A stretch of DNA of 64,000 nt from Acidobacteriota bacterium (GTDB lineage Bacteria > Acidobacteriota > UBA890 > WLXD01), in contig CBDFKO010000002.1 of assembly GCA_965248845.1 (NCBI GenBank), positions 968,063 through 1,032,062 of the forward strand, written 5' to 3'. The position numbers were made by a program, and so were the translations under genes. Shown one piece after another: positions 10,960 through 58,127 of the stretch. Within the stretch, counting starts at the first letter, position 1; the number at the start of each line of letters is the position of its first letter. The notes under the pieces were generated by a model. It was not told the DNA's origin, did no database searches, and saw only the letters and a list, made by a program, of their open reading frames with translations.

Positions 10960-10963
10960 GGCT

Positions 10964-11157: not shown

Positions 11158-11198
11158 AGCGGCCTAACCAGACCCATGAGAGCCTCACCAAGATCCTG

Positions 11199-13641: not shown

Positions 13642-13720
13642 TCCTGTGAATCCTTCCGCTTCCTGTTGCCGCTAACTACGCGTTCCGCTCGATGTTTCAG
13701 GCTTCGATGCCGAAGCGCTC

Positions 13721-28341: not shown

Positions 28342-28384
28342 GAGGGTCTCCCAGGAGGCCGTGGTGAAAGTGCGATGGGTCTGG

Positions 28385-34758: not shown

Positions 34759-35421
34759 TCAGCCGATCTCGCGTCCGGCCTGCTCGGAGAGCTTCGCAAG
34801 GCGCGCCGCCACCTCCGAATCGGCCTTCCGGAGCGCAGCGTCACCACCGTCCCGCGGCACCCACAGGTGCGGCCCGTAAACGAACACGCCACGGCTGAAC
34901 GGCAGCGGGAAGATCATGCGGTCCCAGGTGCCGAGCCGTAGCTCGCGGCTACACGCGAAAGCCACGGGCAGTAAAGGCCTTCCGGTAGCCCGCGCCACCC
35001 AGGTTGCCCCAGGCTGCACCTTCTCGGCCGGGCCGCGGGGACCATCGGGCGTGATTCCCATGTCGCGGCCGCGCCGAGCCGCGGCAACCATGCCCCGTGC
35101 GGCGGCCACGCCGCCGCGCGAGCTCGACCCACGGGTGGCCTCCACACCGAGCCACCCAAAGAGCGTGGCGGTCATCGCGCCGTCGTCCGAACGTGAGATC
35201 GGTACAACGGTGGGAGGCCGGAACTGCACCCAGGGCATCATCGCCAGCTGGGAATGCCAGAAGCAGTAGATCACCGGACCGCCGTCCTCGGGTAGGGCGT
35301 TCTCCGCGCCCACGCGGTGCAGCCGCATGGTGCGGCGAACCATCGCCAGGTACCCCGCCCCGAGGGTGCCGGCCCCGCTCAGCATCGACCGGCGCAGACC
35401 GGCGCGGAGTCGAGACGGCAT
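34759..35421 (-). CDS. DUF374 / lysophospholipid acyltransferase-like protein
   Basis: The IYCFWHSQL motif is typical of DUF374 proteins that sit upstream of msbA/lpxB/kdtA in diderm bacteria. Confidence 0.7.
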   Translation of the reverse strand: MPSRLRAGLRRSMLSGAGTLGAGYLAMVRRTMRLHRVGAENALPEDGGPVIYCFWHSQLAMMPWVQFRPPTVVPISRSDDGAMTATLFGWLGVEATRGSSSRGGVAAARGMVAAARRGRDMGITPDGPRGPAEKVQPGATWVARATGRPLLPVAFACSRELRLGTWDRMIFPLPFSRGVFVYGPHLWVPRDGGDAALRKADSEVAARLAKLSEQAGREIG

Positions 35422-35430
35422 CGTAGACGC

Positions 35431-37245
35431 TCAGCCCTCCAACGCGAACCCTGGCTCCACCGCGGCGGCGAAGTGCAGCGCGTACAGACGCTGGTACGCA
35501 CCCATGCGCGACAGCAACTGCTCGTGGGTCCCCTGCTCGACGACACGGCCGCCCTCGATCACGACGATCAGGTCGACGTTGCGGATCGTCGACAGACGGT
35601 GCGCGATGATGACGGTCGTACGTCCTTCCATCAGATTGACCAACGCCTCCTGCACCAGGCGGTCGGAGCGTACGTCGAGGTTGCTCGTCGCCTCGTCCAG
35701 GATCAGGATCGGCGCGTTCTTGAGCAGCGCGCGGGCGATCGCGATGCGCTGACGCTGCCCCCCCGACAGGCGCAGCCCGCGCTCGCCCAGCACGGTTTCG
35801 TAGCCCTGTGGCAACTTGCTGATGAATTCGTGCGCGAAGGCCGCGCGGGCGGCCGACTCGACCGCTTCAGCAGAAACATTCGGCTGGCAATAGCCGATAT
35901 TAGCGCGCACCGAATCATTGAACAGGATGGTTTCCTGGGTGACCATGGCGATCTGCGCGCGCAGCTCGTCGAGACGGATGCCCTTCAGATCTACATCGTC
36001 GATCGCTACGCGGCCCGAGCTCGGCTCGTAGAAGCGCGGAATCAGGTTGGCCAGCGTCGATTTGCCGGACCCGGAGGGACCGACGAACGCAACCGCGGAG
36101 CCGGCCCGAATCTCCAGATCGATATCGTGCAGCACTTGCTCGCCGCCGCCGTCGGCGTACTCGAAAGCGACGGACTCGAAGCGCAAACCATGAACAAGAG
36201 CCGGCATCGGGACCGTCGGCTCGAACCCGGCGACAGGTTCTGAAAGCGAACCGCCGATCAACCGCAAACGATCGGCCGCCGGCAATGGTTCGACCGGCTC
36301 GTCGAGCACCTCGAACAGACGATCTGCTGCCGATGCCGCGGCCTGCACCCGCACGTTCGCCGAGCTGAGGCGCCGCAGCGGCGCGTAGGTCAGCAGGGCC
36401 GATGCGAGAAACGAGGTGAGCTCACCCGGCGTCAGTTGCGCCTGCGCGATCTGCCACGACCCGTAGATCACCACCAGCGCGCCGCCGCACGCGCCGATGA
36501 ACTCCATCAAAGGCGAGCCGATCGCGGACAGGCGCTCGGCGTGCAATGAATGCCGGTACAGCCGCTCGGCCGCGCGCCGGAACTTCTCCGACTCCGGCTG
36601 CTCCATGCCGAACGCCTTCACCACGCGGATCCCGGTAAGCGTCTCCTGCAGCAGTGCCGAGATCTCGCCAAGCCCCTGCTGTGCGGCGCGGCTGACCCGG
36701 CGTAGACGCTTACCGAGCGCGCCGATGACGGTCGCCACGACCGGTCCGACGGTGAGCACCAGGAGCGCCAAGACCCAGTCGGTGTAGAGCATCAGCGCGA
36801 TCAATCCGACCAGCGTCATGCTCTCGCGCAGCAGATCGACGAAGACTCGCGTCAGCGCCTCCTGGATGGCCAGCACGTCGGAGGTAACCCGTGACATCAA
36901 GCTGCCGGTGGAGCGTCGCGCGTGAAACCCGAGAGGCAGGAACTGCAGGTGCCGGTAGACGTGGACGCGCAGATCACGAACGACCGCGAAGCCGACGCTG
37001 CCCATGAGGTAGCTCGACAGGTAGCGCGCGATTCCCAGCGTCAAGTACAGCAGCACGATGGCCGCGGCGAGCATGCGGACATCGGTAGCGACGGCGCTCG
37101 TAACAAAGGCCTCGTCGACTACGAAGCGCAGCATGTAGATGATCGCCGCGTTCGCCGTCGCCAGGGCGGCCATGGCGGCGATCGCACCCAGCATCCTGGA
37201 CACGTAGGGCCGAACGAAGGGGCTGAGGCGGCGGAGATTGGTCAT
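35431..37245 (-). CDS. ABC transporter permease/ATPase, MsbA-like lipid A exporter
   Basis: Six-TM domain plus NBD with Walker A GPSGSGKST, signature LSGGQRQR and Walker B ILILDEATS. Confidence 0.85.
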   Translation of the reverse strand: MTNLRRLSPFVRPYVSRMLGAIAAMAALATANAAIIYMLRFVVDEAFVTSAVATDVRMLAAAIVLLYLTLGIARYLSSYLMGSVGFAVVRDLRVHVYRHLQFLPLGFHARRSTGSLMSRVTSDVLAIQEALTRVFVDLLRESMTLVGLIALMLYTDWVLALLVLTVGPVVATVIGALGKRLRRVSRAAQQGLGEISALLQETLTGIRVVKAFGMEQPESEKFRRAAERLYRHSLHAERLSAIGSPLMEFIGACGGALVVIYGSWQIAQAQLTPGELTSFLASALLTYAPLRRLSSANVRVQAAASAADRLFEVLDEPVEPLPAADRLRLIGGSLSEPVAGFEPTVPMPALVHGLRFESVAFEYADGGGEQVLHDIDLEIRAGSAVAFVGPSGSGKSTLANLIPRFYEPSSGRVAIDDVDLKGIRLDELRAQIAMVTQETILFNDSVRANIGYCQPNVSAEAVESAARAAFAHEFISKLPQGYETVLGERGLRLSGGQRQRIAIARALLKNAPILILDEATSNLDVRSDRLVQEALVNLMEGRTTVIIAHRLSTIRNVDLIVVIEGGRVVEQGTHEQLLSRMGAYQRLYALHFAAAVEPGFALEG

Positions 37246-38465
37246 GATGCCAGCGCGTCGTCTGCGGTGCGGACGCTCGGTGGAACGATCGTCTCAGCTA
37301 CGGCACGCGCGGCCCGCCGGGAAGCGCCCGGTTCGCCGAGCCGCATCCGAACCTCCTGCAGGAATTCGAGGCACCGACGACGTGGAGCACCGTCCTGCAA
37401 CAACGGGACGAGCTCCTCAACGATCCGTGTTGGAGTGACCTGCTCCTGGAGCAGCTCTGGCACCCCACGGCGAGCCGCAACCACATTTACCAATGCGATG
37501 TCACGAATGCGCACCAGTAACTTTCCGAGATTATAGGTAAGCCAGGATGTTCTGTAAACGACCACTTCGGGCGTCCCGAGAAGCGCTGCCTCGAGCGTCG
37601 CGGTTCCCGAACAGACCACGGCTGCCCGACACTGGCGAAGCAGATCGTAGTAGTCGCCGTCCAGGAGGTGTACGCGCTCGCGGAGCTCGGGCTGCAGCCC
37701 GGCCAACGGGATCTCGTATTCCGAGCGATCGACGCCGGATGCACGCGGGATCAGAAAGTGGAGCGCGCCCTCCAGGGCCGCCAACCGGCTGGCAGCCCCG
37801 AGCAGCGGGTCCAGCAGCCGCGATACCTCGCTCTTGCGGCTCCCAGGCAACAGGCCGACCCACGACGCCGACGCTGGCAGGCTGTGCCGCGCGGCAAGCT
37901 GCTCACGCGGGCAGCGCGGCTCCGCCGGGATGACGTCGAGCAGCGGGTGGCCGACGAAGTCGACCGCGACCCCGAGGTCCTCGTAGAGCGCTTTCTCGAA
38001 CAAGAGAATCACCAGCACCCGGTCGGCCAGGCGCGCAATGTCACGCACTCTGCCCGCCCGCCAGGCCCACACCTGCGGGCTGATGTAGTAGACGATTGGC
38101 ATCTCCGGACGCACCCTGCGCAGGCGGCGCGCCAACGCCATGTTGAAGTCCGGATAATCGACCAGGATGACACCGTCGATGTCGAGATCTTGAACCGCTG
38201 CCACCAGCCCGTTCATGGCCCGGCGTACGTCGCCCAGGTGCGCCAGCACCTCGGTGAAGCCGACCACGGCCAAATGCCGATAGTGGTAGAGGAGCTCGAC
38301 CCCCTGCGCCGCCAGGCAATCCCCACCCACGCCCCAGACCTCGAGCGGCTCGGGATCGTGGCGCAGTTGGTGCACCAGGCTCGACGCGTGGAGGTCCCCC
38401 GAAGCTTCGCCGGCCACGATCAAGAGGCGGCGACCGCCGCGCTGGTCCAGCCCGCCAGGCGCCAA
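37242..38465 (-). CDS. lpxB: Lipid-A-disaccharide synthase
   Basis: LLIVAGEASGDLHAS...GVGG...DYPDFN...YISPQVWAWR are canonical LpxB motifs. Confidence 0.9.
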   Translation of the reverse strand: MAPGGLDQRGGRRLLIVAGEASGDLHASSLVHQLRHDPEPLEVWGVGGDCLAAQGVELLYHYRHLAVVGFTEVLAHLGDVRRAMNGLVAAVQDLDIDGVILVDYPDFNMALARRLRRVRPEMPIVYYISPQVWAWRAGRVRDIARLADRVLVILLFEKALYEDLGVAVDFVGHPLLDVIPAEPRCPREQLAARHSLPASASWVGLLPGSRKSEVSRLLDPLLGAASRLAALEGALHFLIPRASGVDRSEYEIPLAGLQPELRERVHLLDGDYYDLLRQCRAAVVCSGTATLEAALLGTPEVVVYRTSWLTYNLGKLLVRIRDIALVNVVAARRGVPELLQEQVTPTRIVEELVPLLQDGAPRRRCLEFLQEVRMRLGEPGASRRAARAVAETIVPPSVRTADDALAS

Positions 38466-38468
38466 GCC

Positions 38469-40328
38469 TCAGCCCTCCAGGGCAGCGCCCCGGACCCCCG
38501 TGATGTCGAGAGCCTCGAGCACCTCGAGCACCCGCTCCTCCTTTCGGTAGGGCGGTATGACGTGTACTCCGGCGACGCGGCCCGGCAGGGCAGCAAGGAG
38601 ATCTCGCGCCAGCCGACGACCCGTGGCCTCCGGATCCGCCGCGGCCGACAGGGTACCCCGCATGGACTCGGGAATGTCGACTCCTGGAACCTCGTTGTGG
38701 AGGTATTCCGCATGCGCGCTCGTGCGCAGGGGCAGGAGGCCGACGATCACCGGGACCGACAGCTCTCCGATCCGGGCCAGGAAGCGATCTAATAGATCCA
38801 GGCTGAAGATCGGGGGCGTGACTACCGCCACAGCTCCGGCCTCTGCCTGGGCGCTCAGGCGACGTACCTCGTCGTCCAGGTCGGCCGCGGTCGGGTCTCC
38901 CGCCACCAGCGGTACAAAGGCGGTCGGCTCACCGATGGTATTGCCCGCCAGGTCGAGCCCCCGGTTCATCGAGTCCAGAATGCGGACCAGGCCGAGCGGG
39001 CCGACGTCGGCCAGGGTGGTGGCATTCGGATAGTCACCGAAGTTGGCCGGATCGGCGACCGAGATCAACAGGTTGCGCACTCCGAGCACGTGGGCTGCCA
39101 ACATGTCCGATTGAATCCCGAGCATGTTCTTGTCGCGACTCGCGTACGCCTGCACGCACTCGACCCCGAGCTCAGACTGCAGCCGATAGGCTACGACCGT
39201 CGGATGCACGACCAGGCGCGCCCGCAGCGACTCGGACAGGATCAGGGTGTCGACGTCTGCTTGCATCAGCCTGCGACCTTGCCGCACCGTCGGAGCCAGG
39301 TCATGGGAACGCGGGAGCTCCAGGTCGACCGCCACCACGAAGCTCCGACCCAGCCGTGCGGCTAAACCCGTGCGCTGAGGCGCGGGAACGGGCTCACGCG
39401 CGCCCTTGACCGCCGGCTCGTCCTGCAAGCCGTCGCGTCGCACCTCGACTACCTGACGCCGGATCTCGGCGGCCATGGCAGCGACGTGCTCCGGCGTTGA
39501 GCCGCAGCAAGCACCGACGATCGAAGCCCCGGCCTCAGCAAGCAGGCGCGCGTATCGCGCCATGTACTGCGGCTCGGCGTGGTAGTCGATGCGCCCATCG
39601 ACCAGGCGCGGCAGACCGGCTGTCGGCAGAGCCGACAGTGGCAATTCGCTCCGCTGGGCCATGCGCAGGATGATGTCGAGCATGCGCTGCGGTCCAACAG
39701 TGCAGTTGGCGCCGACGACGTCGGCACCGCCGGCCTCCGCCCGTGCCACGACCTCATGTGGTAGCTCGCCCATCAGGGTACGGCCGTCCTCGGTGAAGGT
39801 CTTGTGAACTACGATCGGCAGGTCCGAGGTGTCGCGTGCGGCCCCAAGGGCCACGTCGAACTCCTCGAGATCCGAGATGGTCTCGATTACGAGCAGGTCG
39901 ACACCGCCGTCCACAAGCGCCGCGATCTGCTCGCGGAAGGCCTCGATGGCAGCTGCGCGGGGAACGGATCCGAGCGGTTCCATCGCCAGCCCCAGCGGCC
40001 CTACGACCCCGGCGACGTAGGCCCGCCCCCGACTGGCCTGTCGCGCCAGCCGAGCGGCGTGCACGTTGATCTTCTGCACCTGGCCGGCAAGCCCGAAGTG
40101 CTCCAGTTGCAGTCTGTGCGCACCGTAGGTGTTGGTGCCGACGATCTCCGCTCCCGCCGCGACGTACTCCCGGTGGATGCGCTCCACCAGACCCGGGGCC
40201 AGCAGACACTGCTCCGGAAAGCAACGGTCCATAGGAACGCCCAGGGTATGCAGGTAGGTCCCCATGGCGCCGTCGGACACGATGACCCCCTGCGTCAGGC
40301 GCTCGCGGAAATCGGGCGTCTTTCGCAT
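38469..40328 (-). CDS. Bifunctional homocysteine S-methyltransferase / 5,10-methylenetetrahydrofolate reductase fusion
   Basis: N-terminal Hcy-binding S-methyltransferase domain (zinc cysteines in the GACCG region) fused to a C-terminal MetF/MTHFR domain. Confidence 0.85.
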   Translation of the reverse strand: MRKTPDFRERLTQGVIVSDGAMGTYLHTLGVPMDRCFPEQCLLAPGLVERIHREYVAAGAEIVGTNTYGAHRLQLEHFGLAGQVQKINVHAARLARQASRGRAYVAGVVGPLGLAMEPLGSVPRAAAIEAFREQIAALVDGGVDLLVIETISDLEEFDVALGAARDTSDLPIVVHKTFTEDGRTLMGELPHEVVARAEAGGADVVGANCTVGPQRMLDIILRMAQRSELPLSALPTAGLPRLVDGRIDYHAEPQYMARYARLLAEAGASIVGACCGSTPEHVAAMAAEIRRQVVEVRRDGLQDEPAVKGAREPVPAPQRTGLAARLGRSFVVAVDLELPRSHDLAPTVRQGRRLMQADVDTLILSESLRARLVVHPTVVAYRLQSELGVECVQAYASRDKNMLGIQSDMLAAHVLGVRNLLISVADPANFGDYPNATTLADVGPLGLVRILDSMNRGLDLAGNTIGEPTAFVPLVAGDPTAADLDDEVRRLSAQAEAGAVAVVTPPIFSLDLLDRFLARIGELSVPVIVGLLPLRTSAHAEYLHNEVPGVDIPESMRGTLSAAADPEATGRRLARDLLAALPGRVAGVHVIPPYRKEERVLEVLEALDITGVRGAALEG

Positions 40329-40372
40329 CCCGCTAGAGTACCCGATCGTCAGCGCACGAAACGGCCGGGTAC

Positions 40373-40534
40373 GAGCAGGCCATGGCGAGGTGTGATGCGT
40401 CGGGGCAAGTAGGTTCTACGGCCGAGGGCAAGGCTCGGCAGAGCCGGCGCAGGCACATCGTCGAGAGCGTGCCGCGAGGCATCTGCGCCCCTGGCGGCGT
40501 AACCAGCCCATCACACTTTCACCACGGCCTGGTA
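40373..40534. repeat. MITE-like element, copy C (~160 bp), in the divergent promoter region between the methyltransferase gene and the glycosyltransferase cluster
   Basis: Left end gagcaggccatggcgaggtgtgatgcg; right end cccatcacactttcaccacggcctggTAG; interior homologous to copy A (cggccgagggcaagg, acatcgtcgag). Confidence 0.6.
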
Positions 40535-40600
40535 GGAGACCGTGCTAGAGTTCAGCCTTCTTGGGGCGCCCCTGCTCCGCCTCCCATCTGCCCGCTCCCG

Positions 40601-41707
40601 ATGCGAATCTGTATCGACTACCGGCCGGCGCTGCACGAGTCCACTGGGGTCGGCACCTACGTAAAAGGGCTGCTGTACGGGCTGCTGGAGTGCTACCCCG
40701 ACGAACGGATCACAGCTTTCTCGGCCTCGTGGCGACACCGTCCGGACCCACCCAAGGAACTCGAAGGCGCCCGGTTCGTCGACGCACGCTTCCCGGTCCG
40801 GCTCCTGGATCTGCTCTGGAACCGCGGCGCTTGGCCGGCCATCGAACGCTGGGTCGGTCCGCAGGACCTGGTCCATTCGCCGTCGCCGTTGCCGCTGCCG
40901 ACGCGCACTGCCCGACAGGTCGTCACGGTCCACGACTGCTACTTTCTGCGCCATCCCGAGGACGTCGATGGACCGATGCGACGCGACTTCGCACCCATGT
41001 TGAAGCGAGCACTCGAGTCGGCCGATGGCATCATCACCAACACCGAGACGACCCGACGCGAGTTGCTCGAGCTCGTCGACATTCCCGAGCAGCGCGTGCA
41101 CGTGACCTTGCTCGGGCTGGACCCGGCCTTCGAAGGCCACGAGGCTCCGGTCGCTCGGATCGCCGGCTTGCCTGCGCGCTACCTGCTGTTCGTCGGACGC
41201 CGGGAACCGCGCAAGGACCCGCGCACACTCCTGCAGGCGTTCGACCTGATCTTGGACCACGACCCCGACCAGCATCTCGTTCTAGTCGGTCCGGACGGCC
41301 TGCGCTGGGACCAGACCTGGGCGGCCGCAAGCGAACGCGCGCGGGCCCGGACCATCCGTATGCCGCACGAGTCCACCGAACGACTTGCCGGTATCTACGC
41401 CGGCGCCGAAGGATTGCTGCTGCCATCGCGGTGGGAGGGGTTCGGGCTTACTGCGATCGAGGCCATGGCCATGGGAACACCGGTGATCGCGACGCGGTGT
41501 GGAGCCCTGCCGGAGGTGCTGGGTAACGCCGCGATCTGGTTCGATGTCGGGGACGCACGCGCCCTGGCCGATGCTTGTCTCGGTCTCGCCGACGATCCCG
41601 AGAGGCGACGACGTCTGGTGGCACGGGGCACCGAACGGGCGCGCCGCTATCGCTGGCAGAACACCGCGCGCCGCACCCACGAGCTGTACCGACAGCTCGC
41701 CGCATGA
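40601..41707 (+). CDS. Glycosyltransferase family 4
   Basis: GT-B fold with the EGFGL(T/P)..EAMA motif; ATG 40601. Confidence 0.85.
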   Translation: MRICIDYRPALHESTGVGTYVKGLLYGLLECYPDERITAFSASWRHRPDPPKELEGARFVDARFPVRLLDLLWNRGAWPAIERWVGPQDLVHSPSPLPLPTRTARQVVTVHDCYFLRHPEDVDGPMRRDFAPMLKRALESADGIITNTETTRRELLELVDIPEQRVHVTLLGLDPAFEGHEAPVARIAGLPARYLLFVGRREPRKDPRTLLQAFDLILDHDPDQHLVLVGPDGLRWDQTWAAASERARARTIRMPHESTERLAGIYAGAEGLLLPSRWEGFGLTAIEAMAMGTPVIATRCGALPEVLGNAAIWFDVGDARALADACLGLADDPERRRRLVARGTERARRYRWQNTARRTHELYRQLAA

Positions 41708-42804
41708 GTTCCGGCAAGCCGCTGCGGATCGCCGTCGACGCTCGTGAGCTCGAGGGTCGCCCCACGGGGGTCGGCCGTGTAGTCGCCGGCCTCCTGGCGT
41801 CCTGGCCCAGAACCGACGACCGAATCGAGCTAATCTGTCGCTCCGCCATCCGCCCCCCCTGGCTGCGCGAGGGATGGGCCGTGCGCACGGCAAGCGGCGC
41901 CCCCCGACTCCCGGGGGCCCTGTGGGAGCAGACGGTATTGCCAATGGCGCTTGGCGACGCGGAGGTCCTAGTTGCGCCCAACTACGGTATGCCGCGGTTC
42001 GCCCCAATCCCGACAGCCGTGTGTATGCACGACTGCGCTCCGTTCGCCTTACCTGAGACGTTCGCCGCTCGAGAGCGGGCCCGCCGACGCTGGTCGGCGC
42101 GCGTTGCTGCCCGCCGAGCCGCAGTGATCTTCATGGGCTCGGAGTTCGCCGCGCGTGAATGCCATCGGTGGCTCGGCGTTTCGGACCAGCGGCTCCTCGT
42201 TATCCCGTGGGGATGCACGCCGGAGTTCCGGCCCGCTTCCCGCGAGCGGGTGGCGACGGTGCGTTCACGCTACCGACTGCGCGACCGCGTCGTGCTGTTC
42301 GTCGGCTCGCAGCTGCAGCGGCGGGACATCGATGCCCTCGGCCGTCACGTAGCACAGCTACGGGCCGGTCGCGATGACCTGGAGCTATGCATCGTCGGCG
42401 GCAATCCGGAGGCCGCCGAGCACACCGATCAAGACCGGCACGTACGACGACTGGGCTATGTTCCCGACGAGGACCTCCCTGCCCTCTACAGCGCCGCTAC
42501 GGTGGTGGCCTACCCGTCGCGCTACGAAGGGTTCGGCCTACCGGTGCTCGAGGCCCTGGCATGCGGAACGCCCGTCGTGGCCTCGGCTACCAGTGCACTC
42601 CTCGACGTCTTCTCCGGCCGGGCGCGGCTCGTGGACCACGACGACGACGTGGCCTGGCTCGAAGCGCTGGCTCGCCTGCTCGACAGTCAGGAGGTCCGCG
42701 ACCAGGAGATCGCACGGGGTCACGGCTGGGCCGTCGGTCGTGACTGGGACGCGAGCGCCGCCCGTCTGCGAGCCCGACTCGCTGACATCGGATCGACGCC
42801 ATGA
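41704..42804 (+). CDS. Glycosyltransferase family 4
   Basis: The EGFGLPVLEALACGTPVV motif; start overlaps the upstream stop (ATGA). Confidence 0.85.
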   Translation: MSSGKPLRIAVDARELEGRPTGVGRVVAGLLASWPRTDDRIELICRSAIRPPWLREGWAVRTASGAPRLPGALWEQTVLPMALGDAEVLVAPNYGMPRFAPIPTAVCMHDCAPFALPETFAARERARRRWSARVAARRAAVIFMGSEFAARECHRWLGVSDQRLLVIPWGCTPEFRPASRERVATVRSRYRLRDRVVLFVGSQLQRRDIDALGRHVAQLRAGRDDLELCIVGGNPEAAEHTDQDRHVRRLGYVPDEDLPALYSAATVVAYPSRYEGFGLPVLEALACGTPVVASATSALLDVFSGRARLVDHDDDVAWLEALARLLDSQEVRDQEIARGHGWAVGRDWDASAARLRARLADIGSTP

Positions 42805-43697
42805 CGCCGATCGACATCGTCGTCGTCAGCTACAATCGCCGCGATCTTCTGCTGCAGTGCTGTGCTGCCGTAGGACGGCTCGAGCAGGCAACCCGCCTTT
42901 TCGTCGTCGACAACGCCTCCGATGACGGTAGCGCTGCGGCGGTTCGCGAACGCGTTCCGGCGGCGCACGTCATCGACATGGGCTCCAACCGCGGCTTCGC
43001 CGCGGCCGTGAATCGTGGCGTGGGCGAGGGCTCGGCGCCGCTCGTGCTGTTGCTCAACAGCGACGCGTCGATCCAGAGCGCGGCGCTGGGCCGGCTGGCT
43101 GAGGTTCTCGAGCGCGACCCCGAGGTGGCCGGCGCGGGGCCGCGGATCCGCGGTGCCGGTGGTCAACTCGAGCTATCGACAGGGCGCACCATGAGCGTGT
43201 TGAACGACATCGGGTTCCTGGTCGCCGGTCTCCTGCATCGGGGTGGCAACGGCCCCCTGACGCCGCTACTGGAGCGACACGCTTCACGCCCGCGGATCGC
43301 GGGATCGCTCACCGGCGCCTGCCTGTTACTGCGGCGCACGGCCCTGGAGTCGGTGGGCGGGCTCGACGAGCGCTTCTTCCTCTACGCCGAGGACGTCGAC
43401 TTGTGCCTCCGCTTGCGCCAAGCAGGTTGGCGCCTCCGATACGTTCCGGAAGCCACGGCCTGTCACCTGCGCGGTGGCTCAGCGGCGACAGCACCGGCGG
43501 CAACGGCGCTCGCCTACCGACGCAGCCAGCTCGCCTTCTACGACAAGCACCGTGGGTCGGTGCAGCGCACCATGCTCCGCGGCTGGCTACTGGCCCGCTT
43601 CGGTGTCGCCGCCCTCCTGGCCGGTGGCGCGCGCGGAACCAGGGCCCGGCAGGTGGTCGCCATGGCACTCGGGCGTGGAGCGGGAGCGGGCAGCTGA
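42801..43697 (+). CDS. Glycosyltransferase family 2
   Basis: IVVVSYNRRDLL...VVDNASDDGS...DAS motifs of the GT-A fold; ATGA overlap with the upstream gene. Confidence 0.85.
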   Translation: MTPIDIVVVSYNRRDLLLQCCAAVGRLEQATRLFVVDNASDDGSAAAVRERVPAAHVIDMGSNRGFAAAVNRGVGEGSAPLVLLLNSDASIQSAALGRLAEVLERDPEVAGAGPRIRGAGGQLELSTGRTMSVLNDIGFLVAGLLHRGGNGPLTPLLERHASRPRIAGSLTGACLLLRRTALESVGGLDERFFLYAEDVDLCLRLRQAGWRLRYVPEATACHLRGGSAATAPAATALAYRRSQLAFYDKHRGSVQRTMLRGWLLARFGVAALLAGGARGTRARQVVAMALGRGAGAGS

Positions 43698-44845
43698 TGC
43701 GGGTGCTGATCGACGCGCGCAAGCTCGGCGACTTCGGCATCGGCAGGTACATCCGAGGACTCGTGGGGGCCGCGGCCGCGCTACGACCGAGCTGGGAGTT
43801 CTGCGTGATGTCGCGACCCGAGAACAGCGACATCGCCACCTGGGCTGCCGGGAACGTACGCGTCGTTCTCGACTCCACCGGCGACTACTCGCTGGGCGAG
43901 ATGGTGGCCGGGAGTCGTTGCGCCCGGAGGATCGGAGCGGACCTGTTTCACGCGCCGCACTATGTCTTCCCGCGGCGCCTCCCCTGCCCCGGCATCGTGA
44001 CGATCCACGACTGCATCCACCTACGGTACCCTGGCCATCTGCCGCGTCCGCTCGGCCTGCTACCTCGCCGCCTCAGCCTGCTGTATGCGCAGCGCATGAT
44101 GCGCTTCGCAACGCGCACGGCGAGCCACGTGATCGCCGTGTCGGAAGCCACGCGAGCCGATATCGTCGATCGGCTTGGCGTCGGCGCCACCCGGGTCACG
44201 GCAATCCTCAACGGAGGTGGGACGGACGCGCTGGCGGCGCATGTAGCCGACCGGGCCGACTCCGACGACAGGAACGCGGCTCTGCCCGGTCTCTACGTGC
44301 TGTTCGTGGGCAACCCGAAGCCGCACAAGAACCTATCGGGTCTGCTGAGTGCCTTCGCCGGCCTGGCCGCGGACTATCCGGTTCTGCAGCTCGTGTTGGT
44401 CGGGCCTCTGGGGGCGCTCGCCGATGCGGTGGCAGCGCATCCGGCATCGACCGACCTGGCCGCTCGGATCCACAACTTGGGCCTCCTGTCCGAGCACGAG
44501 CTGCGTTGCGTCTACCGACAGGCGACACTGCAGTGCATGCCGTCGCTGTACGAGGGTTTCGGTCTGCCGGCGCTAGAGGCCATGGCTGCGGGGACGCCGG
44601 TAGTCGCATCCGATGCTGGTGGTCTGCCCGAGGTCGTCGGCGACGCCGGCGTCTTGGTCGAGCCGGGTAGTGTGGAGGCACTGACCGAGGCCCTGGCTCA
44701 CCTCCTGAGCGACGAGACCCGCCGCCGAGAGCTGGCCCGTCGGGGGCGGGAGCGCGCCTCCCGATTCAGCTGGCAACGCGCCGCCGAAGCAACCCTCGAC
44801 ATCTACGAGCTGGTCACCCTCCAGAAGGTCGCGGTGAAAATCTGA
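43697..44845 (+). CDS. Glycosyltransferase family 4
   Basis: YEGFGLPALEAMAAGTPVVAS; start overlaps the upstream stop. Confidence 0.85.
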   Translation: MRVLIDARKLGDFGIGRYIRGLVGAAAALRPSWEFCVMSRPENSDIATWAAGNVRVVLDSTGDYSLGEMVAGSRCARRIGADLFHAPHYVFPRRLPCPGIVTIHDCIHLRYPGHLPRPLGLLPRRLSLLYAQRMMRFATRTASHVIAVSEATRADIVDRLGVGATRVTAILNGGGTDALAAHVADRADSDDRNAALPGLYVLFVGNPKPHKNLSGLLSAFAGLAADYPVLQLVLVGPLGALADAVAAHPASTDLAARIHNLGLLSEHELRCVYRQATLQCMPSLYEGFGLPALEAMAAGTPVVASDAGGLPEVVGDAGVLVEPGSVEALTEALAHLLSDETRRRELARRGRERASRFSWQRAAEATLDIYELVTLQKVAVKI

Positions 44846-44861
44846 TGGGTCTGATCGGGCT

Positions 44862-45992
44862 GTGAGAGTCGCACTCGTCCACGACTGGCTCACCGGTATG
44901 CGCGGTGGCGAGAAGGTACTCGAGGAGCTCGTCCGGCTGTTCCCCGAGGCCTCCATCCATACGCTAGTGCATGAGCTCGGCTCGGTGAGCGACCTGTTGG
45001 AATCGCGGCCGATCCATACCTCGTTCATCCAGCGGCTGCCGACGCGCTCGGCCTTCCGCTGGTACCTGCCTTTATTCCCGGCCGCCGTACGCGGGTTGGA
45101 CCCGGGCGAGGTCGACCTGGTGTTTTCCAGCAGTCACTGCGCTGCCAAGGCGATCATCGCGCCGCCGGGGGCACGTCACCTGTGCTACTGCCACACCCCC
45201 ATGCGCTACGCCTGGGACCAGTTCGACGCCTACTTCTCACCTGAACGGTCGGGCCGCCTACGCTACCCGATCATCCGTGCGGTCATCGCCTGGCTGCGGC
45301 ACTGGGATCGCGCGACAGCTCATCGCGTGCACGCCTTCGCCGCCAACTCTGCCTACGTTGCCGGGCGGATCCGCCGTTACTACGACCGCGAGGCGGTCGT
45401 CATCCCGCCACCGGTCGACACGGAGCGTCTCACTCCCGGCGAGACAGCCCCCGAGCCATTCTGGCTGATGGTCTCGGCCCTCACCCCGTACAAGCGCATC
45501 GAGCTGGCGATCGAGGCCTTCAACCGCACGCGACGAGCGCTGGTGATCGCGGGGTGGGGGCCCGAGCGTGAGCGGCTAGAAGATCTCGCCGGACCGACCG
45601 TCCGTCTCGTCGGCAAGGTGACCGACACGGAGCTCCTCGACCTGTATCGTCGATGTCGCGGCTTCCTGCTTCCGGGCGTCGAAGACGCCGGCATCGCGCC
45701 GCTCGAGGCCATGGCCTGCGGACGGCCGGCGCTGGTGCTCAACCAGGGCGGAGCCGCGGAGGCCATCGTACCTGGCGAAACGGGTCTGCTTATCGAATCA
45801 CCGACTTCCGAGGCCATGAACGCAGCTATTGACACCGCCGAAGGCCTCTCCTTCAATACTGAGACGATCCGTACGCATGCGGAGCGCTACTCCCGGGCCG
45901 CGTTCAGGCGTCGTATCGAGCGCTTCGTCGAGCAAAACTTCAGCGGGTCGCAGATGGCTGCCCACCCGCCCTCCGACCCCGCACCTTCCTGA
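44862..45992 (+). CDS. Glycosyltransferase family 4
   Basis: GT4-like with a GTG start and MRVALVHDWLTGMRGGEKV N-terminus. Confidence 0.85.
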   Translation: MRVALVHDWLTGMRGGEKVLEELVRLFPEASIHTLVHELGSVSDLLESRPIHTSFIQRLPTRSAFRWYLPLFPAAVRGLDPGEVDLVFSSSHCAAKAIIAPPGARHLCYCHTPMRYAWDQFDAYFSPERSGRLRYPIIRAVIAWLRHWDRATAHRVHAFAANSAYVAGRIRRYYDREAVVIPPPVDTERLTPGETAPEPFWLMVSALTPYKRIELAIEAFNRTRRALVIAGWGPERERLEDLAGPTVRLVGKVTDTELLDLYRRCRGFLLPGVEDAGIAPLEAMACGRPALVLNQGGAAEAIVPGETGLLIESPTSEAMNAAIDTAEGLSFNTETIRTHAERYSRAAFRRRIERFVEQNFSGSQMAAHPPSDPAPS

Positions 45993-46006
45993 CCCGAGGC
46001 CACGGA

Positions 46007-47476
46007 TTGATCGCACGCCAGCGCACTCAGCAAGCGGTCGCGCTCTTCATATCCGACCTCGTCGCTATCGGGGTGGCTTTCTGGTTCGCCTACTGGCTGC
46101 GCTTCGTCGCCCAGGTGATCGAGGTCCGCGATCGACCCGAGGACATCCCGACCCTGGGCAGCTACTGGCCCGTATTGGCCGCGGCGCTGATCGTGGTTCC
46201 GCTGATCCTGGCATCGGCGCGGCTGTACCGGGTCGGGCGCACGAACGCCCGGATCGAGGGCTACATCCGGGTGGCCGGCGCCGTCAGCTTCGGCCTGCTG
46301 CTCGTCGCCGCCCTGGTGGCCGCGCTGTACCGACCGGAGCAGCTAGTGCCGGTGAACGTCGGCGACGGGCAGACCGAGCTCGTGCGTGTCATCAGCTTCC
46401 AGATCTCCCGCTGGTTCCTGATTTTCTTTTGGGCCGAGACGGTGTTCGCGGCAGTGGCAGGGCGCGTGCTGATTCAGCGTTTTATCGACCGCGCCCGGCG
46501 ATCCGGCAGCAACCTCAAGAGCATTCTCATTGCCGGCACTGGGCCTCTCGCGGAAACCGTGATCAACAAGATCCGCCTGCACGAGGAATTCGGCCTCAGA
46601 GTGGTCGGTATGCTCGAAGCCGAGCCGGAGGCGGCCGAGTACCGCGGCGTGCCAGTGGTCGGATCCCTGGCCGACGCGGCGCGCCTGGTCCGCAAGCGTA
46701 AGGTCGACCAGGTCTACGTCGCCCTGCCGCTGTCGGCCCACGAGCAGATCCTGCAGCTGCTCCGCGACCTGGCCCACGAGATCGTCGAGGTCAAGGTGGT
46801 CCCGGATCTGCTGCAGTACATTACCCTGGGTGCAGGAGTAGAGGACCTCGACGGTGTGCCCATCGTCAACCTCTCGCGTATCCCGCTCGAGGGCTTCCCC
46901 GCCGTCGTCAAGCGGACCTTCGACATCCTCTTCGCCGGGGCGTGTCTGCTGCTGTTTGCCCCGTTGTTCCCCATCATCGCGCTGGCCGTGCGCCTCACCT
47001 CACCCGGCCCGATCCTGTACCGGCAGCAGCGCATGGGTCTCGACGGGCGCCCCTTCGACTTGCTGAAGTTCCGCTCGATGGTCGTCGATGCCGAGGCCCA
47101 CACCGGCCCGGTGTGGGCCGATGAAAAGGACCGGCGCTGTACCCCGATCGGCTCGGCGCTGCGCAAGTTGAGCCTCGACGAGCTACCACAGTTCTGGAAC
47201 GTGCTGCGCGGCGACATGAGCCTGGTCGGCCCGCGGCCGGAGCGCCCCTACTTCGTCGACCAGTTCCGCGAGCACATCCCTCACTACATGCTTCGCCATC
47301 GCGTGCGAGCCGGGCTTACCGGCTGGGCCCAGGTACACGGATGGCGGGGGAATACGTCGCTCGAGAAGCGCATAGAATACGACCTCTATTACATCGAGAA
47401 CTGGTCGCTGGCGCTTGACTTCAAGATCCTCTGGATGACCGTAACCAACGGCATGGTCCACGAGCACGCCTACTGA
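46007..47476 (+). CDS. Priming sugar transferase (undecaprenyl-phosphate hexose-1-phosphate transferase, WcaJ/WbaP-like)
   Basis: N-terminal TM region plus the bacterial sugar transferase domain (PRPE..., DELPQFWNVLRGDMSLVGPRP). Confidence 0.9.
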   Translation: MIARQRTQQAVALFISDLVAIGVAFWFAYWLRFVAQVIEVRDRPEDIPTLGSYWPVLAAALIVVPLILASARLYRVGRTNARIEGYIRVAGAVSFGLLLVAALVAALYRPEQLVPVNVGDGQTELVRVISFQISRWFLIFFWAETVFAAVAGRVLIQRFIDRARRSGSNLKSILIAGTGPLAETVINKIRLHEEFGLRVVGMLEAEPEAAEYRGVPVVGSLADAARLVRKRKVDQVYVALPLSAHEQILQLLRDLAHEIVEVKVVPDLLQYITLGAGVEDLDGVPIVNLSRIPLEGFPAVVKRTFDILFAGACLLLFAPLFPIIALAVRLTSPGPILYRQQRMGLDGRPFDLLKFRSMVVDAEAHTGPVWADEKDRRCTPIGSALRKLSLDELPQFWNVLRGDMSLVGPRPERPYFVDQFREHIPHYMLRHRVRAGLTGWAQVHGWRGNTSLEKRIEYDLYYIENWSLALDFKILWMTVTNGMVHEHAY

Positions 47477-47515
47477 GCAAGCCCCGCCGGCTCGCTGGGA
47501 GGCGGGAGTGCGATC

Positions 47516-48475
47516 ATGAGTGAACGCACAGAGACAGTGCTGATCACAGGTGGTGCCGGATTCATCGGCTCGCACCTCGCCGAGCATCTGCTGGGCCAGG
47601 GTGCCCGCGTGATCGTCATGGACAACTTGCTCACCGGCACCGCGAGCAACGTAGCGCGTTTCGCCAACCGCGACTACCTGTTCATCCAGCACGACGTCAC
47701 CAACTACATGTTCATCGATGAGCCGGTCGACTACGTCCTCCATTTCGCCTCGCCGGCGTCCCCGATCGACTATCTCCGCTACCCGATCCAGACGCTCAAG
47801 GTCGGTGCGCTGGGGACGCACAAGGCACTCGGCCTGGCGCGCCACAAGAACGCGGTCTTCATGTTGGCCTCGACCTCCGAGGTGTACGGCGACCCCCAGA
47901 TCAACCCGCAGCCCGAGTCCTACTGGGGGCACGTGAATCCGATCGGCCCGCGCGGCGTCTACGACGAGGCCAAGCGCTTTGGCGAGGCGATCACCATGGC
48001 CTACCACCGCAGCCACGGGCTGCGGACACGGATCGCGCGAATCTTCAACACCTACGGGCCTCGAATGCGGGTCGACGATGGACGGGCGGTGCCCAACTTC
48101 CTCATGCAGGCGCTTACGGCCGAGCCGATCACGGTGTACGGGGACGGCTCCCAGACGCGTTCCTTCTGCTACGTCGAGGACACGGTGCGTGGCCTCGTGG
48201 CACTGATGTGCTCGGCGGTCAGCGAACCGGTGAACGTCGGAAACCCGGCCGAGATCTCCATTCTGGACATCGCCCGGTTGATCGTCGACAAGACCGAGTC
48301 GAACAGCGAGATCGTGTTTCACGATCTTCCGGTCGACGATCCCAAGGTGCGACGCCCCGACATCGGCCGCGCGCACGCGGAGCTGGGTTGGGACCCGCAG
48401 ATCGACCTCGCCGAAGGTCTCGAGCTCACGATTCCCTGGTTCCGCCAGCAGCTCGCCAAGCGCCAGACCGCCTAG
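47516..48475 (+). CDS. UDP-glucuronate decarboxylase (UDP-xylose synthase), SDR family
   Basis: [10 protein letters not shown] Rossmann motif, catalytic YDEAKR and UXS-type conservation. Stop TAG lies within the CTAG that was targeted by IS5. Confidence 0.9.
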
Positions 48476-49780
48476 CAGGCTGCTGAAAAACGGCTCGAGC
48501 GCGCCATTTTGGGCTGGATCGTCTCGATCACGGTGAGTTAGCGGGGCGGCGAGTGCGAGTGCGAGGCTCTGGTTGCCGGCCGCGCCGGTATTTCTTGGGC
48601 GGTTAGTCCCGATATCGTCACGTCGCCCCCTGGAGGTTGCGCATTCTGACCAGGTTGAAGGCAGCGGCGGTGAAGGTGAACATCCAATCGACGCGTTCGG
48701 TGCCTCGGTGCCGCGTCTTGCGCATCAGCCCGACCGTCTTGGCCCATCCGAACATCTGCTCGACGAGCTTGCGTTTCCTTTGACTGACCTGGTAGCCGGG
48801 GTGGCGGGTTGTGCGCCGGTCGATGGCGCTGCGCCGATTGGTGTCGTTCTGTGCGACGTGCGGGGTGATGTTCCGATCTCGAAGCTTACGGACGCACTCG
48901 CGTGTGTCGTAGCCCTTGTCGGCCGCCAAGGTCACCCTGCGGTTACCGGAAATCTTGTCCGCCATTTGCACCGCCGCCTCTCGTTCCGCTGTCCCGGAAG
49001 CGATCGTTACGCATGCCTTGGTTGCTAACCCGTGGCGGTTGTCGATCATCAGGTGCCCCATGTAGCAGAGCTTCGACTCGGCTCCCCTACTTTTCTTGTA
49101 CAGGCGTGCGTCCGGATCGGTCCTGGAGGCGTGAGTATCGTTTGTGCGCCGTTGTTTGCGAAAATCGACGCTCGGGTTGCTGCCGCCCTCATCGGAGTCG
49201 CTCTGATCCTTCGGCTTGAAGCTCTTGTGTGAGGCCCACGCCTCGATCAGCGTACCGTCCACCGTGAAGTGCTCATCCGATAGCAGGCTGCGGCGCCGTG
49301 CCTCCGCCAGCACTTCCTGGAAGAACACCTCGGCGACCTCGCCTCCCAACACTCGATCCCGGTTCTTCGTGAACACCGTCGCATCCCACACCAGATCGTC
49401 CATGTTCAGGCCCACAAACCACCGGAACAGCAGGTTGTAGTCGAGCTGCTCCATCAGCATGCGCTCGGAGCGAATCGTGTACAGCACCTGCAGCAGCAGC
49501 GCCCGCAGCAGTTTCTCCGGCGGGATCGACGGTCGCCCCGTGTGCGAGTACAGCTTCTCGAACAGCGGCGACATCCGCCCCAGCACATCGTTGACGATCC
49601 TCAGCAGCGGCCGCAGCGGATGCTCTTTCGGTACTCGCTGCTCCGGAGATACGTAACTAAAGGCGGCCACCTGTCCCGCGTCCTCACCACGCATCTGCTC
49701 ACCTCGTTGATGCTTCGGTTTTTGCCGCGGGCTGCGTGGTTCAGAATCTACTCGAACAAGGGGAGTTTTTCAGCAGCCTG
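48476..49780. mobile_element. IS5-family insertion sequence (1305 bp) with 16-bp perfect terminal inverted repeats and a 4-bp CTAG target duplication
   Basis: Terminal repeats caggctgctgaaaaac / gtttttcagcagcctg; CTAG at 48472-48475 and 49781-49784. Confidence 0.85.
48618..49694 (-). CDS. IS5-family DDE transposase
   Basis: 358 aa with DDE_Tnp_1-like motifs (HPLRPLLRIVND..., DKGYD). Confidence 0.9.
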   Translation of the reverse strand: MRGEDAGQVAAFSYVSPEQRVPKEHPLRPLLRIVNDVLGRMSPLFEKLYSHTGRPSIPPEKLLRALLLQVLYTIRSERMLMEQLDYNLLFRWFVGLNMDDLVWDATVFTKNRDRVLGGEVAEVFFQEVLAEARRRSLLSDEHFTVDGTLIEAWASHKSFKPKDQSDSDEGGSNPSVDFRKQRRTNDTHASRTDPDARLYKKSRGAESKLCYMGHLMIDNRHGLATKACVTIASGTAEREAAVQMADKISGNRRVTLAADKGYDTRECVRKLRDRNITPHVAQNDTNRRSAIDRRTTRHPGYQVSQRKRKLVEQMFGWAKTVGLMRKTRHRGTERVDWMFTFTAAAFNLVRMRNLQGAT

Positions 49781-49804
49781 CTAGGAGACCGTGCTTCGGC
49801 CCCT

Positions 49805-56137: not shown

Positions 56138-56174
56138 ATAGCAGGCTGTGGTGCAAGTGTGATGGGCCTGGTAG
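56138..56174. repeat. Micro copy (~37 bp) of the MITE family in the gcvT leader
   Basis: aTAGcaggctgtggtgcaagtgtgatgggcctggTAG, i.e. left terminal motif plus the right tip. Confidence 0.5.
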
Positions 56175-56231: not shown

Positions 56232-56870
56232 CTACCGGACCCGCTCCCAGCCGCTGGTAGCGGCGCGGAATCGCCACACGGCGACACGGCCGGTCGCCCC
56301 ATACAAGCGCACCGCCGCAGCGTCCCCGTAAGCGTTGTGGAGATAGACCGTACCGCTACTCGTCGACCCTTCAGGGGCAACGCTCAGCCGATCGAGACGG
56401 CCGAACGCGACGCCATCCGCGGGCCGGGCGCCGGCCAGCGACGGCACCCCGGCCGGTAGACCCGCCACGATCCCGGGAAAGTCGCGTTCGAGACGAAACA
56501 CTCGACCCGTCGGCCTATCGATGTTCCGACGCAGGTCGTCCGATCGGAGGCCGTCCCCATCGCCATCCTCGAGCTCGTGCCATTCCAGACCGTCCACCGT
56601 GTAGAACTGAAGGCCGAAGTGCCGGCCGTGGGCGCTCGCTCTCGCTTGCAAGACGGCGACCTGCGTCGCAATCGCGCCGCAGGCCGACAGGAGCTGTTGG
56701 CTCTGGCGCCATCGGACCCAGGCGGGAGCAGCCGTCTGCACGAGTAGCCCTACGATCGCGAGGCACACGGTCAACTCGAGCAGTGAGACGCCCGCTGCCC
56801 GGAAGGCTACGCCGCCAGCGGCGCGTCCTTGACGGTGGCACCGTAACCAGACCCACCACACTTTCACCAC
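56232..56870 (-). CDS. Orphan prepilin-type N-terminal cleavage/methylation domain protein (GspH/FimT-like minor pseudopilin); 5' end lies within a MITE copy
   Basis: AAG|VSLLELTVCLAIVGLL prepilin motif with Glu at +5; GspH-like C-terminus. No other T2SS/T4P genes nearby. The GTG start falls inside the repeat caccacactttcacc. Confidence 0.55.
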   Translation of the reverse strand: MVKVWWVWLRCHRQGRAAGGVAFRAAGVSLLELTVCLAIVGLLVQTAAPAWVRWRQSQQLLSACGAIATQVAVLQARASAHGRHFGLQFYTVDGLEWHELEDGDGDGLRSDDLRRNIDRPTGRVFRLERDFPGIVAGLPAGVPSLAGARPADGVAFGRLDRLSVAPEGSTSSGTVYLHNAYGDAAAVRLYGATGRVAVWRFRAATSGWERVR

Positions 56871-56879
56871 GGTCTCCTA
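56850..56879. repeat. MITE-family right-end copy (D) immediately left of IS630 copy 2
   Basis: gacccaccacactttcaccacggtctccTA. Confidence 0.6.
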
Positions 56880-58080
56880 GTCTCCTGTAACAGTGGTTCG
56901 CAGCATAAGTCATGAGGCGTGTTGGTCGAGAGTGCGCTGTGCGAACCGGGCGATGGGAGCCAGGATCTCGTCGGCACTCTTGCACCACACGAACGGCTCG
57001 GGGGTCTCGTTGTGCGCATCGATGAACTCCCAGATAGCTGCCACCAGCGCTGCGACACTGCAATGAGATCCGCGGCGGATCTGCTTGTTGGTCAGCTCGG
57101 CGAACCAGCGCTCGACCTGGTTGAGCCACGAGGCATAGGTAGGGGTGAAGTGCAGGTGGAAGCGTGGCCGTTTGGCCAGCCAGGTGTGGATCATCGGGCT
57201 CTTGTGGGTGCCGTAGTTGTCCAGGACCAGATGCACCTGCAGTTGGGCAGGCACCTGCTCATCGATCATGTCCAGGAACTTGCGGAACTCCACCGAGCGA
57301 TGCCGGCGGTGAGTCTGAGCCAGAACGGTTCCCGTCTTGATGTCCAAGGCGGCGAACAACGATGTCGTTCCATGGCGTTGGTAGTCATGCGTGCGCCGCT
57401 CCATCTGGCCGGGCCGCATGGGTAGCAACGGCTGTGTCCGATCCAGTGCCTGGATCTGGCTCTTTTCGTCCACGCACAGCACCACCGCGTGCTCGGGCGG
57501 GTTGACATACAACCCGACGACGTCGCGCACCTTGTCCACCAGTAACGGGTCGGGCGAGAGCTTGAACGTCTCGGTGCGGTGTGGCTTGAGACCAAAGGCA
57601 CGCCAGATCCGGCTGATTGTGGCGTGGCTCAAGCCGGTCGCCTTGGCCATCGACCGGGTGGACCAGTGGGTGGCCCCACGCGGGGTACTCTCCAAGGTGC
57701 GGATGATCACCTGTTCGACCTGGGCGTCCGTGATCTTGCGCGGCGCTCCGGGTCGCGGTTCGTCGTACAGGCCATCGAGACGATCCGACACGAAGCGTGC
57801 CCGCCATTTGCCCACGGTGCTCGGTGACAGCTGCAAGCGCTTGGCCACGGCCTTGTTGTCGTGTCCCTGCGCGCAGGCCAGGACGATGCGCGCGCGGCGT
57901 GCCGGGGCGGGGGCGGTGCGGGATCGATGCGCCAACGAGTTCAGGTGTGCCTCCTCCTGTGGCGTCAGCGTTAAGGGAGCCTTGGGTCGACCGGTGCGCA
58001 TGCGACAATCTCCTGTGCTCAGCTACAGGTTCAACATATGCACACTATAACTTATATCAGTTATTTCTGATACAGGAGAC
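56880..58080. mobile_element. IS630-family insertion sequence (copy 2, 1201 bp) inserted at the TA of a CTAG between two MITE arms
   Basis: TA duplications at 56878-56879 and 58081-58082. Terminal inverted repeat gtctcctgtaacag / gtctcctgtatcag with AT-rich subterminal sequence. Confidence 0.85.
56910..58001 (-). CDS. IS630-family DDE transposase (full length, N-terminal HTH plus DDE core)
   Basis: 363 aa; aligns with the copy-1 transposase over its whole length. Confidence 0.9.
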
Positions 58081-58127
58081 TAGCGGCCCGTGGTGAAAGT
58101 GTGATTAAGCGGCCCGCCGCTTGGTAG
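58081..58127. repeat. MITE-family left-end/micro copy (E) immediately right of IS630 copy 2
   Basis: TAgcggcccgtggtgaaagtgtgatt...cttggTAG. Together with D it forms a 16-bp perfect palindrome, cacactttcaccacgg / ccgtggtgaaagtgtg, centred on the TA that was duplicated. Confidence 0.6.

Follow-up and report, generated by a model that had tools for sequence, protein, structure and literature searches.

A conserved seven-gene cluster beside lipid A genes in Acidobacteriota and the lipid-linked oligosaccharide that it may assemble

What is built by five glycosyltransferases, a priming transferase and a UDP-xylose synthase (UXS) when they are encoded side by side, with no genes at the same place that would carry the product across the membrane? 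The question is raised by a cluster of seven genes at positions 40601–48475 of a 64,000-nucleotide (nt) stretch of an Acidobacteriota genome (assembly GCA_965248845.1, contig CBDFKO010000002.1, positions 968,063 to 1,032,062 of the forward strand), which is referred to here as the window. We consider it probable, at about three chances in four, that the seven genes are an operon whose enzymes would work at the cytoplasmic side of the inner membrane and build a defined oligosaccharide there on undecaprenyl phosphate. The locus itself encodes neither a flippase nor a polymerase, ligase or oligosaccharyltransferase.

Predicted enzymes of the cluster

The open reading frame (ORF) list of the window contains seven intact ORFs in this region, all co-oriented on the plus strand and all with high third-position GC. 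The GC content of the cluster is that of the window, which is 64–71% all along. The genes are as follows.

40601..41707, plus strand: GT4a, a GT4 glycosyltransferase (GT-B fold) of 368 residues with Pfam domains Glyco_transf_4 and Glycos_transf_1; EX7E motif at residue 279; the orthologue in related locus L081 has 369 residues
41704..42804, plus strand: GT4b, a GT4 glycosyltransferase of 366 residues with Glyco_transf_4 and Glycos_transf_1; 30% identity to GT4a and GT4c
42801..43697, plus strand: GT2, a soluble GT2 glycosyltransferase (GT-A fold) of 298 residues with Pfam domain Glycos_transf_2; 0 predicted transmembrane segments
43697..44845, plus strand: GT4c, a GT4 glycosyltransferase of 382 residues with Glyco_transf_4 and Glycos_transf_1; EX7E motif
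44862..45992, plus strand: GT4d, a WbaZ-like GT4 glycosyltransferase of 376 residues with Glyco_transf_4 and Glycos_transf_1; GTG start
46007..47476, plus strand: WcaJ-family polyprenyl-phosphate hexose-1-phosphate transferase (the priming enzyme) of 489 residues with CoA_binding_3 and Bac_transf, matching TIGR03023; TTG start
47516..48475, plus strand: UDP-glucuronate decarboxylase, i.e. UXS, of 319 residues, assigned from its match to human UXS1 and its signature residues

The first four genes overlap one another. Direct reading of the junctions gave two ATGA overlaps, at 41704–41707 (GT4a/GT4b) and 42801–42804 (GT4b/GT2), and a TGATG overlap at 43695–43699, where the GT4c ATG shares one base with the GT2 TGA. 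The remaining gaps are 16 nt (GT4c/GT4d), 14 nt (GT4d/priming transferase) and 39 nt (priming transferase/UXS). A first-pass annotation of this DNA had described seven co-oriented genes with three overlapping junctions and translationally coupled glycosyltransferases. The genes, the overlaps and the coupling all stand; only the start of GT4c required correction, from 43694 to 43697. A 441-residue extended ORF from 40382 was considered as an alternative form of GT4a and rejected, since it crosses a repeat element and the orthologues have 369 residues.

The functions proposed in the same annotation (four GT4 and one GT2 glycosyltransferases, a WcaJ-type priming transferase and a UDP-glucuronate decarboxylase) are backed by Pfam and NCBIfam searches. 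The EX7E motif is retained in all four GT4 proteins. GT4a, GT4b and GT4c are distant paralogues with 30–34% mutual identity, and GT4d belongs to another subfamily, its nearest solved structure being the WbaZ-1 mannosyltransferase (2f9f, E = 5.5e-23).

The priming transferase scores 485.4 bits against TIGR03023 (WcaJ, undecaprenyl-phosphate glucose phosphotransferase; cut-off 410.75) and 469.8 bits against TIGR03025 (cut-off 295.55). Its architecture fits the large monotopic type, with an N-terminal transmembrane bundle, a CoA_binding_3 domain and a C-terminal Bac_transf domain carrying the Asp-Glu dyad. The motifs DELPQ (residue 391) and GPRP are kept, and a crude hydropathy analysis placed five hydrophobic segments at residues 10, 50, 87, 138 and 300. 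Although the name of TIGR03023 implies glucose, models of WbaP, which transfers galactose-1-phosphate, also match the protein, and WbaP structures are hit with E ~1e-34.

The last gene encodes an SDR (short-chain dehydrogenase/reductase) of the extended type, covered over its full length by the Pfam families Epimerase and GDP_Man_Dehyd, with the NAD-binding motif (GxxGxxG) present as GGAGFIGSH at residues 12–20. Human UXS1 structures are matched along the whole length with E = 4e-105, compared to 8.7e-42 for the next non-UXS chain and ~1e-24 to 1e-30 for dTDP-glucose dehydratases and ArnA. UXS enzymes are distinguished by a catalytic Thr/Tyr/Lys triad together with the UXS-specific residues Ser119, Glu120 and Arg277 (human UXS1 numbering), and the latter two are replaced in epimerases (PMC3438964). 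All six signature residues are present: T120, S121, E122, Y149, K153 and R279 align with Thr118, Ser119, Glu120, Tyr147, Lys151 and Arg277 of the human enzyme. We conclude that the protein is, as judged from its sequence, a UXS orthologue.

It is very unlikely that this SDR is instead a 4,6-dehydratase, a 4-epimerase, an ArnA-like decarboxylase or a UDP-apiose synthase, in which case no xylose would be implied. Some sources (JGI names) do label homologues as dTDP-glucose 4,6-dehydratase, and the top NCBIfam match is RmlB; that match reaches 147 bits, far under the cut-off of 365, and NCBIfam has no UXS equivalog model. Against this, the NCBI name for close homologues is UDP-glucuronic acid decarboxylase family, and the match to human UXS1 is better than that to any dehydratase or epimerase by more than 60 orders of magnitude. 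The decarboxylase assignment of the first-pass annotation was thus checked against the case of a 4,6-dehydratase or other SDR and withstood it.

The same annotation had regarded a dedicated UXS as uncommon in bacteria, which is contradicted by a protein search. When the best 8000 candidates were scored, at least 7991 clusters had E <= 1e-100, a level reached only by UXS in the structure search. Named homologues at this level come from Acidobacteriota, Methylomirabilota, Rokubacteria, Tectomicrobia, Planctomycetota, Chloroflexota and Eisenbacteria. UXS enzymes occur in all domains of life (PMC5607165), and UDP-xylose synthesis appears to be routine in environmental bacteria.

Family membership, intact catalytic motifs, tight coupling and gene order are observed directly, and from them we infer an order of reactions, the sugars and a product. 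The WcaJ-family transferase would prime the lipid with hexose-1-phosphate, probably glucose-1-phosphate. The WbaZ-like GT4d, which lies next to it, probably adds the second sugar; it is the likely second-step enzyme because the two genes are paired across several phyla (see below). GT4a, GT4b, GT4c and GT2 would then add up to four more sugars, giving about a hexasaccharide. UXS would convert UDP-glucuronate to UDP-xylose, so that at least one of the added sugars is probably xylose.

Conservation, surroundings and fate of the product

The cluster is flanked by housekeeping genes. Upstream, on the minus strand, are a metH-like gene, lpxB, an MsbA-type exporter gene, a DUF374 gene, yicC, gmk, coaBC, a UDG-family gene, priA and more housekeeping genes. 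Downstream are an IS5-family transposase, aroB, a racemase gene, gcvP, gcvH, gcvT, an IS630-family transposase, a GH20 hexosaminidase and others. The three upstream genes that matter most here were identified with Pfam and NCBIfam.

34759-35421, minus strand: DUF374
35431-37245, minus strand: MsbA-type ABC exporter
37242-38465, minus strand: LpxB

We compared the window proteins by tblastn with 84 loci, 80 from a scan of a genome collection with GT4d and four from exact-protein look-ups; individual loci are cited by number. The nearest are metagenome-assembled genomes of Acidobacteriota with 61–65% identity in GT4d, and most of the others are from Vicinamibacteria or Vicinamibacterales (50–58%). 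All seven genes occur in the order of the window in 32 of the 84 loci, and the first six in 38. The priming transferase directly follows GT4d in 68 loci from several phyla, and of the 54 loci with room for UXS, ~42 have it after the priming transferase.

In 46 loci the cluster has a divergent MsbA-type gene on its upstream side, and the whole DUF374-msbA-lpxB block is divergent from the cluster in L001, L002, L081 and L082. The order in L081 is that of the window minus the metH-like gene and the insertion sequence (IS): DUF374, msbA and lpxB on one strand, the seven cluster genes on the other, then aroB, racemase and gcvP, with the overlaps between the glycosyltransferase genes preserved. The housekeeping flanks are found in L082 as well. 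Thus, the position of the cluster is fixed between housekeeping genes, almost always beside msbA and, in the source lineage, also beside lpxB. The metH-like gene (38469–40328, a fused homocysteine S-methyltransferase/methylenetetrahydrofolate reductase gene between lpxB and the glycan cluster) occupies this position in the window and L002 only and is absent there from L001, L081 and L082, and is therefore likely a lineage-specific insertion into a conserved block.

Identity to L001 and L002 is 46–76% for the cluster proteins and 52–71% for the flanking housekeeping proteins. As the cluster has diverged about as much as its neighbours, it seems to have evolved with the genome, and not as an island; horizontal transfer was considered and rejected, since GC and protein divergence both match the neighbouring genes. 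On these comparisons we read the locus as ancestral to Vicinamibacteria-type Acidobacteriota and inherited vertically within their core genome, rather than as a variable O-antigen or capsule island. Overall, the reading in the first-pass annotation was partly borne out; it had missed both the class-wide conservation beside lipid A genes and an IS5-family element at the UXS stop codon (described below).

When all ORFs of the loci were clustered, the recurrent families were ugd, galE, a polyprenyl-phosphate GT2, CDP-alcohol phosphatidyltransferase, a TPR-SLH protein, hflX, yicC, gmk and coaBC. In Vicinamibacterales (L018, 718–5528), ugd, galE and a polyprenyl-phosphate GT2 (AglJ/ArnC-like) lie between msbA and the cluster; msbA overlaps the GT2 gene by 4 nt, and galE (418 bits, cut-off 262) and ugd are upstream of the GT2 gene on the same strand. 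These ugd and galE genes can supply UDP-glucuronate, the UXS substrate, and UDP-galactose, and through the set of four an undecaprenyl-phosphate-sugar might be made available for modification in the periplasm. An upstream ugd is likewise present in L084. UXS is missing from a marine acidobacterial lineage (L082 and L083; 11110–12608), which has the same flanks and the six transferase genes, followed by aroB. Single genes are added elsewhere: a GT87 (GT-C fold) gene right after UXS in L012 (13549–14805), a trypsin-like peptidase gene between GT2 and GT4c in a family of seven loci (L038, 7343–8773; L013, 7251–8777) and a TPR protein gene between GT4c and GT4d in L005 (7622–9115).

Export and polymerization genes were sought first among every long ORF of the window, and none encodes Wzx, Wzy, Wzz, Wza, WaaL, an ABC-2 exporter or STT3. 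The absence of Wzx, Wzy and Wza noted in the first-pass annotation thus holds, and the flanks of the window and of relatives alike (lpxB, msbA and DUF374 on one side; aroB, racemase and gcvP on the other) show that the cluster is not continued by a Wzx/Wzy locus. A synthase-dependent or Wzm/Wzt pathway is not matched either, the sole ABC protein being an MsbA-type half-transporter and the 298-residue GT2 having no transmembrane segment. In the relatives, we looked for ORFs with at least six predicted transmembrane segments and ran ten from full-cluster loci through Pfam; none of these ten sampled polytopic proteins, from within 10 kb in 48 related full-cluster loci, is Wzx, Wzy or WaaL. What the sample contains instead is AI-2E, MFS, CitMHS and Na/H transporters and one GT87; as unrelated transporters, these were rejected as exporters for the cluster. 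Further candidate flippases, ORFs of 430–510 residues, were rejected: those inserted within the cluster encode trypsin-like peptidases or a TPR protein, and those just downstream of UXS in L058 and L061 encode DEAD-box helicases. As a positive control, the identical procedure found Polysacc_synt (Wzx), Wzy_C and MurJ-like genes in the GT4d loci of Gemmatimonas, Ignavibacteriae and Terriglobia. Thus, the absence of a flippase and polymerase is a conserved property of the acidobacterial locus and not a gap of a single window.

The adjacent ABC exporter is best read, from its profile scores, as MsbA. On TIGR02203, the MsbA equivalog model (cut-off 602), the window protein reaches 568 bits and its L018 counterpart 605; on the PglK model (cut-off 1000) the score is only 178–188 bits, and a PglK-type flippase was rejected on these scores.

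Where the oligosaccharide would go is less certain than how it would be made. We tentatively favour a unit linked to lipopolysaccharide (LPS) on the cell envelope, on account of the msbA/lpxB neighbourhood and the invariance of the locus, and rank an exopolysaccharide close behind and a donor for protein glycosylation third. The first-pass annotation had named two options, a lipid-linked oligosaccharide for protein or lipid glycosylation and transport functions encoded elsewhere; to these the present data add that transport genes are likewise missing from the locus among the neighbours sampled in about 48 related genomes. The constant proximity of msbA fits an LPS connection weakly, as the unrelated yicC, gmk and coaBC are conserved in the same block. 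It is also conceivable that the operon makes the repeat unit of a Wzx/Wzy-dependent exopolysaccharide or capsule, with wzx, wzy, wza and wzc at another locus. Split polysaccharide loci are common, TIGR03023 and TIGR03025 are defined on exopolysaccharide priming enzymes, and the GT4d homologues of the three control groups adjoin the very genes in question. The sampled polytopic neighbours in the relatives speak against this possibility, as does the invariance of the locus across deep lineages, which sets it apart from most capsule and exopolysaccharide islands.

A fixed lipid-linked oligosaccharide for general protein glycosylation, which might be flipped by the neighbouring MsbA-type exporter in the manner of PglK, is improbable. 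It would explain a clade-wide conserved glycosyltransferase cluster without a polymerase, and the sole consistently adjacent exporter, in 46 loci, is indeed an ABC_membrane-type half-transporter, which in L018 is joined to the GT2 gene by the overlap described above, with galE and ugd further upstream on the same strand. The exporter scores as MsbA, however, and not as PglK; it is co-oriented with lpxB in the lineage of the window, which fits lipid A export; and neither STT3/PglB nor PglL/Wzy_C turned up in the window or among the flanks that were examined in relatives. We know of no evidence of glycoproteins in Acidobacteriota and, to our knowledge, no general glycosylation system has been described in the phylum. 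A still more speculative proposal combines these elements: a single invariant, xylose-containing lipid-linked oligosaccharide, made throughout the class and flipped by the MsbA-type exporter, for clade-wide modification of LPS or envelope proteins. If true, flipping by MsbA would explain why no Wzx is ever nearby, but we regard the proposal as doubtful.

Several observations count against an LPS-linked, xylose-containing oligosaccharide made by one operon. The operon itself is probable from the spacing of the genes (overlaps or gaps of at most 39 nt) only. Promoter and terminator scans of the cluster gave no usable signal; no sigma-70-like site was found in 40200–48800, a scan that is not informative for this phylum. 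Sugar specificity is unreadable from the GT4 and GT2 sequences. No ugd was found among the long ORFs of the 64-kb window, which bears on the supply of UDP-glucuronate. Given the loci without UXS (L082 and L083), xylose may be a dispensable decoration or be supplied from elsewhere. Finally, inherited synteny with no functional significance may be why msbA and lpxB lie close by, given that coaBC, gmk and yicC are kept in the same block.

Repeats, insertion sequences and other features of the window

Two mobile or repeated elements border the cluster.

40372..40535, strand not assigned: repeat of 164 nt resembling a miniature inverted-repeat transposable element (MITE); imperfect terminal inverted repeats of ~27 nt; non-coding
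48476..49780 (site 48471-49785), minus strand: IS5-family insertion sequence with transposase ORF 48618-49694 (DUF772 and DDE_Tnp_1); perfect 21-nt inverted ends including CTAG

The repeat falls within the intergenic 272 nt that separate GT4a from the divergent metH-like gene, in agreement with the MITE copy reported upstream of the cluster by the first-pass annotation. Its right end is a copy of the 28-nt terminal motif CCATCACACTTTCACCACGGCCTGCTAG, which occurs six times in the window (0 expected). The two ends of the element align as inverted repeats with one indel, and a 198-nt copy at 10962–11159, which has 32-nt inverted repeats (78% complementary), shares 77% identity with the element. 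The 198-nt copy starts and ends with CTAG, and the 164-nt copy has CGAG and GTAG at these positions. MITE is a reasonable label for the latter. Full or partial copies lie at 10962–11159, 11477–11504, 28351–28378 and 56138–56165, all intergenic in housekeeping operons, one of them in the leader upstream of gcvT.

The IS5-family element also ends in CTAG, and its termini are partly similar to the MITE-like repeat. Its insertion point is precisely the CTAG within which UXS has its TAG stop codon, and the stop is restored because the element duplicated its CTAG target. The insertion is specific to the source genome: it is absent from L001, L002 and L081, where UXS is directly convergent with aroB.

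An IS630-family element at 56857–58103 (transposase 56910–58001, minus strand) lies within the CTAG centre of a palindromic repeat copy of the CCATCACACTTTCACCACGGCCTGCTAG type, whose arms (56857–56893 and 58067–58103) are 89% complementary. This location suggests that the IS630-family element may target the 28-nt repeats. A second IS630-family copy at 7413–8574 (DDE_3 transposase 7413–8390) has 33-nt inverted ends, and the two copies are just 72% identical over 300 nt.

No Rfam family reached its gathering score anywhere in 1–64000; accordingly, the scan recognised no glycine riboswitch in front of the gcvT-gcvH-gcvP operon and no riboswitch in front of the metH-like gene. Dense periodic GC-rich repeats of 9–24 nt at 13240–14017 fall in the N-terminal region of infB and the C-terminal region of nusA, where they encode acidic, proline-rich low-complexity linkers.

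Comparison with known glycan loci

No account of this cluster, or of LPS loci in Acidobacteriota, turned up in a literature search. The components of the cluster are members of well-known families used with standard logic, so that the sequence alone settles no open question; what is noteworthy is the class-wide conservation, the fixed position and the consistent lack of transport genes. Acidobacteriota are among the most abundant soil bacteria, and a glycan locus whose position and content do not vary across a class would be a good target for work on envelope glycan chemistry in cultured Vicinamibacteria.

Characterised bacterial UXS enzymes include SmUxs1 of Sinorhizobium meliloti and BfUxs1 and BfUxs2 of Bacteroides fragilis (PMC5607165). 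Like the enzyme of the window, which was compared directly with human UXS1 only, these are single-function extended SDRs of the UXS type, ~320 residues long and encoded in or near glycan loci. The pgl locus of Campylobacter jejuni also combines a compact set of GT4 enzymes with an adjacent MsbA-type ABC half-transporter, and makes a fixed lipid-linked oligosaccharide without a polymerase. It differs in having a small PglC-type priming transferase and PglB, compared to the large WcaJ type and no oligosaccharyltransferase here, and in that the ABC protein of the acidobacterial locus scores as MsbA and not as PglK. The general O-glycosylation loci OGC of Burkholderia and lfg of Bacteroidetes are likewise clade-wide glycan clusters whose transferring enzyme is encoded elsewhere; both include a Wzx-type flippase, in contrast to the acidobacterial cluster.

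In enzyme content, the cluster is similar to the colanic acid wca locus of E. coli and the gum locus of Xanthomonas, where a large priming transferase of the WcaJ family is likewise encoded in one operon with several soluble GT4 and GT2 enzymes, and a nucleotide-sugar gene is embedded among them. The wca and gum clusters carry wzx, wzy, wza and wzc within the locus, whereas none of these is found with the acidobacterial cluster, in the 64 kb or in the related loci sampled. Unlike wca and gum, the acidobacterial locus is invariant and syntenic across a whole class.

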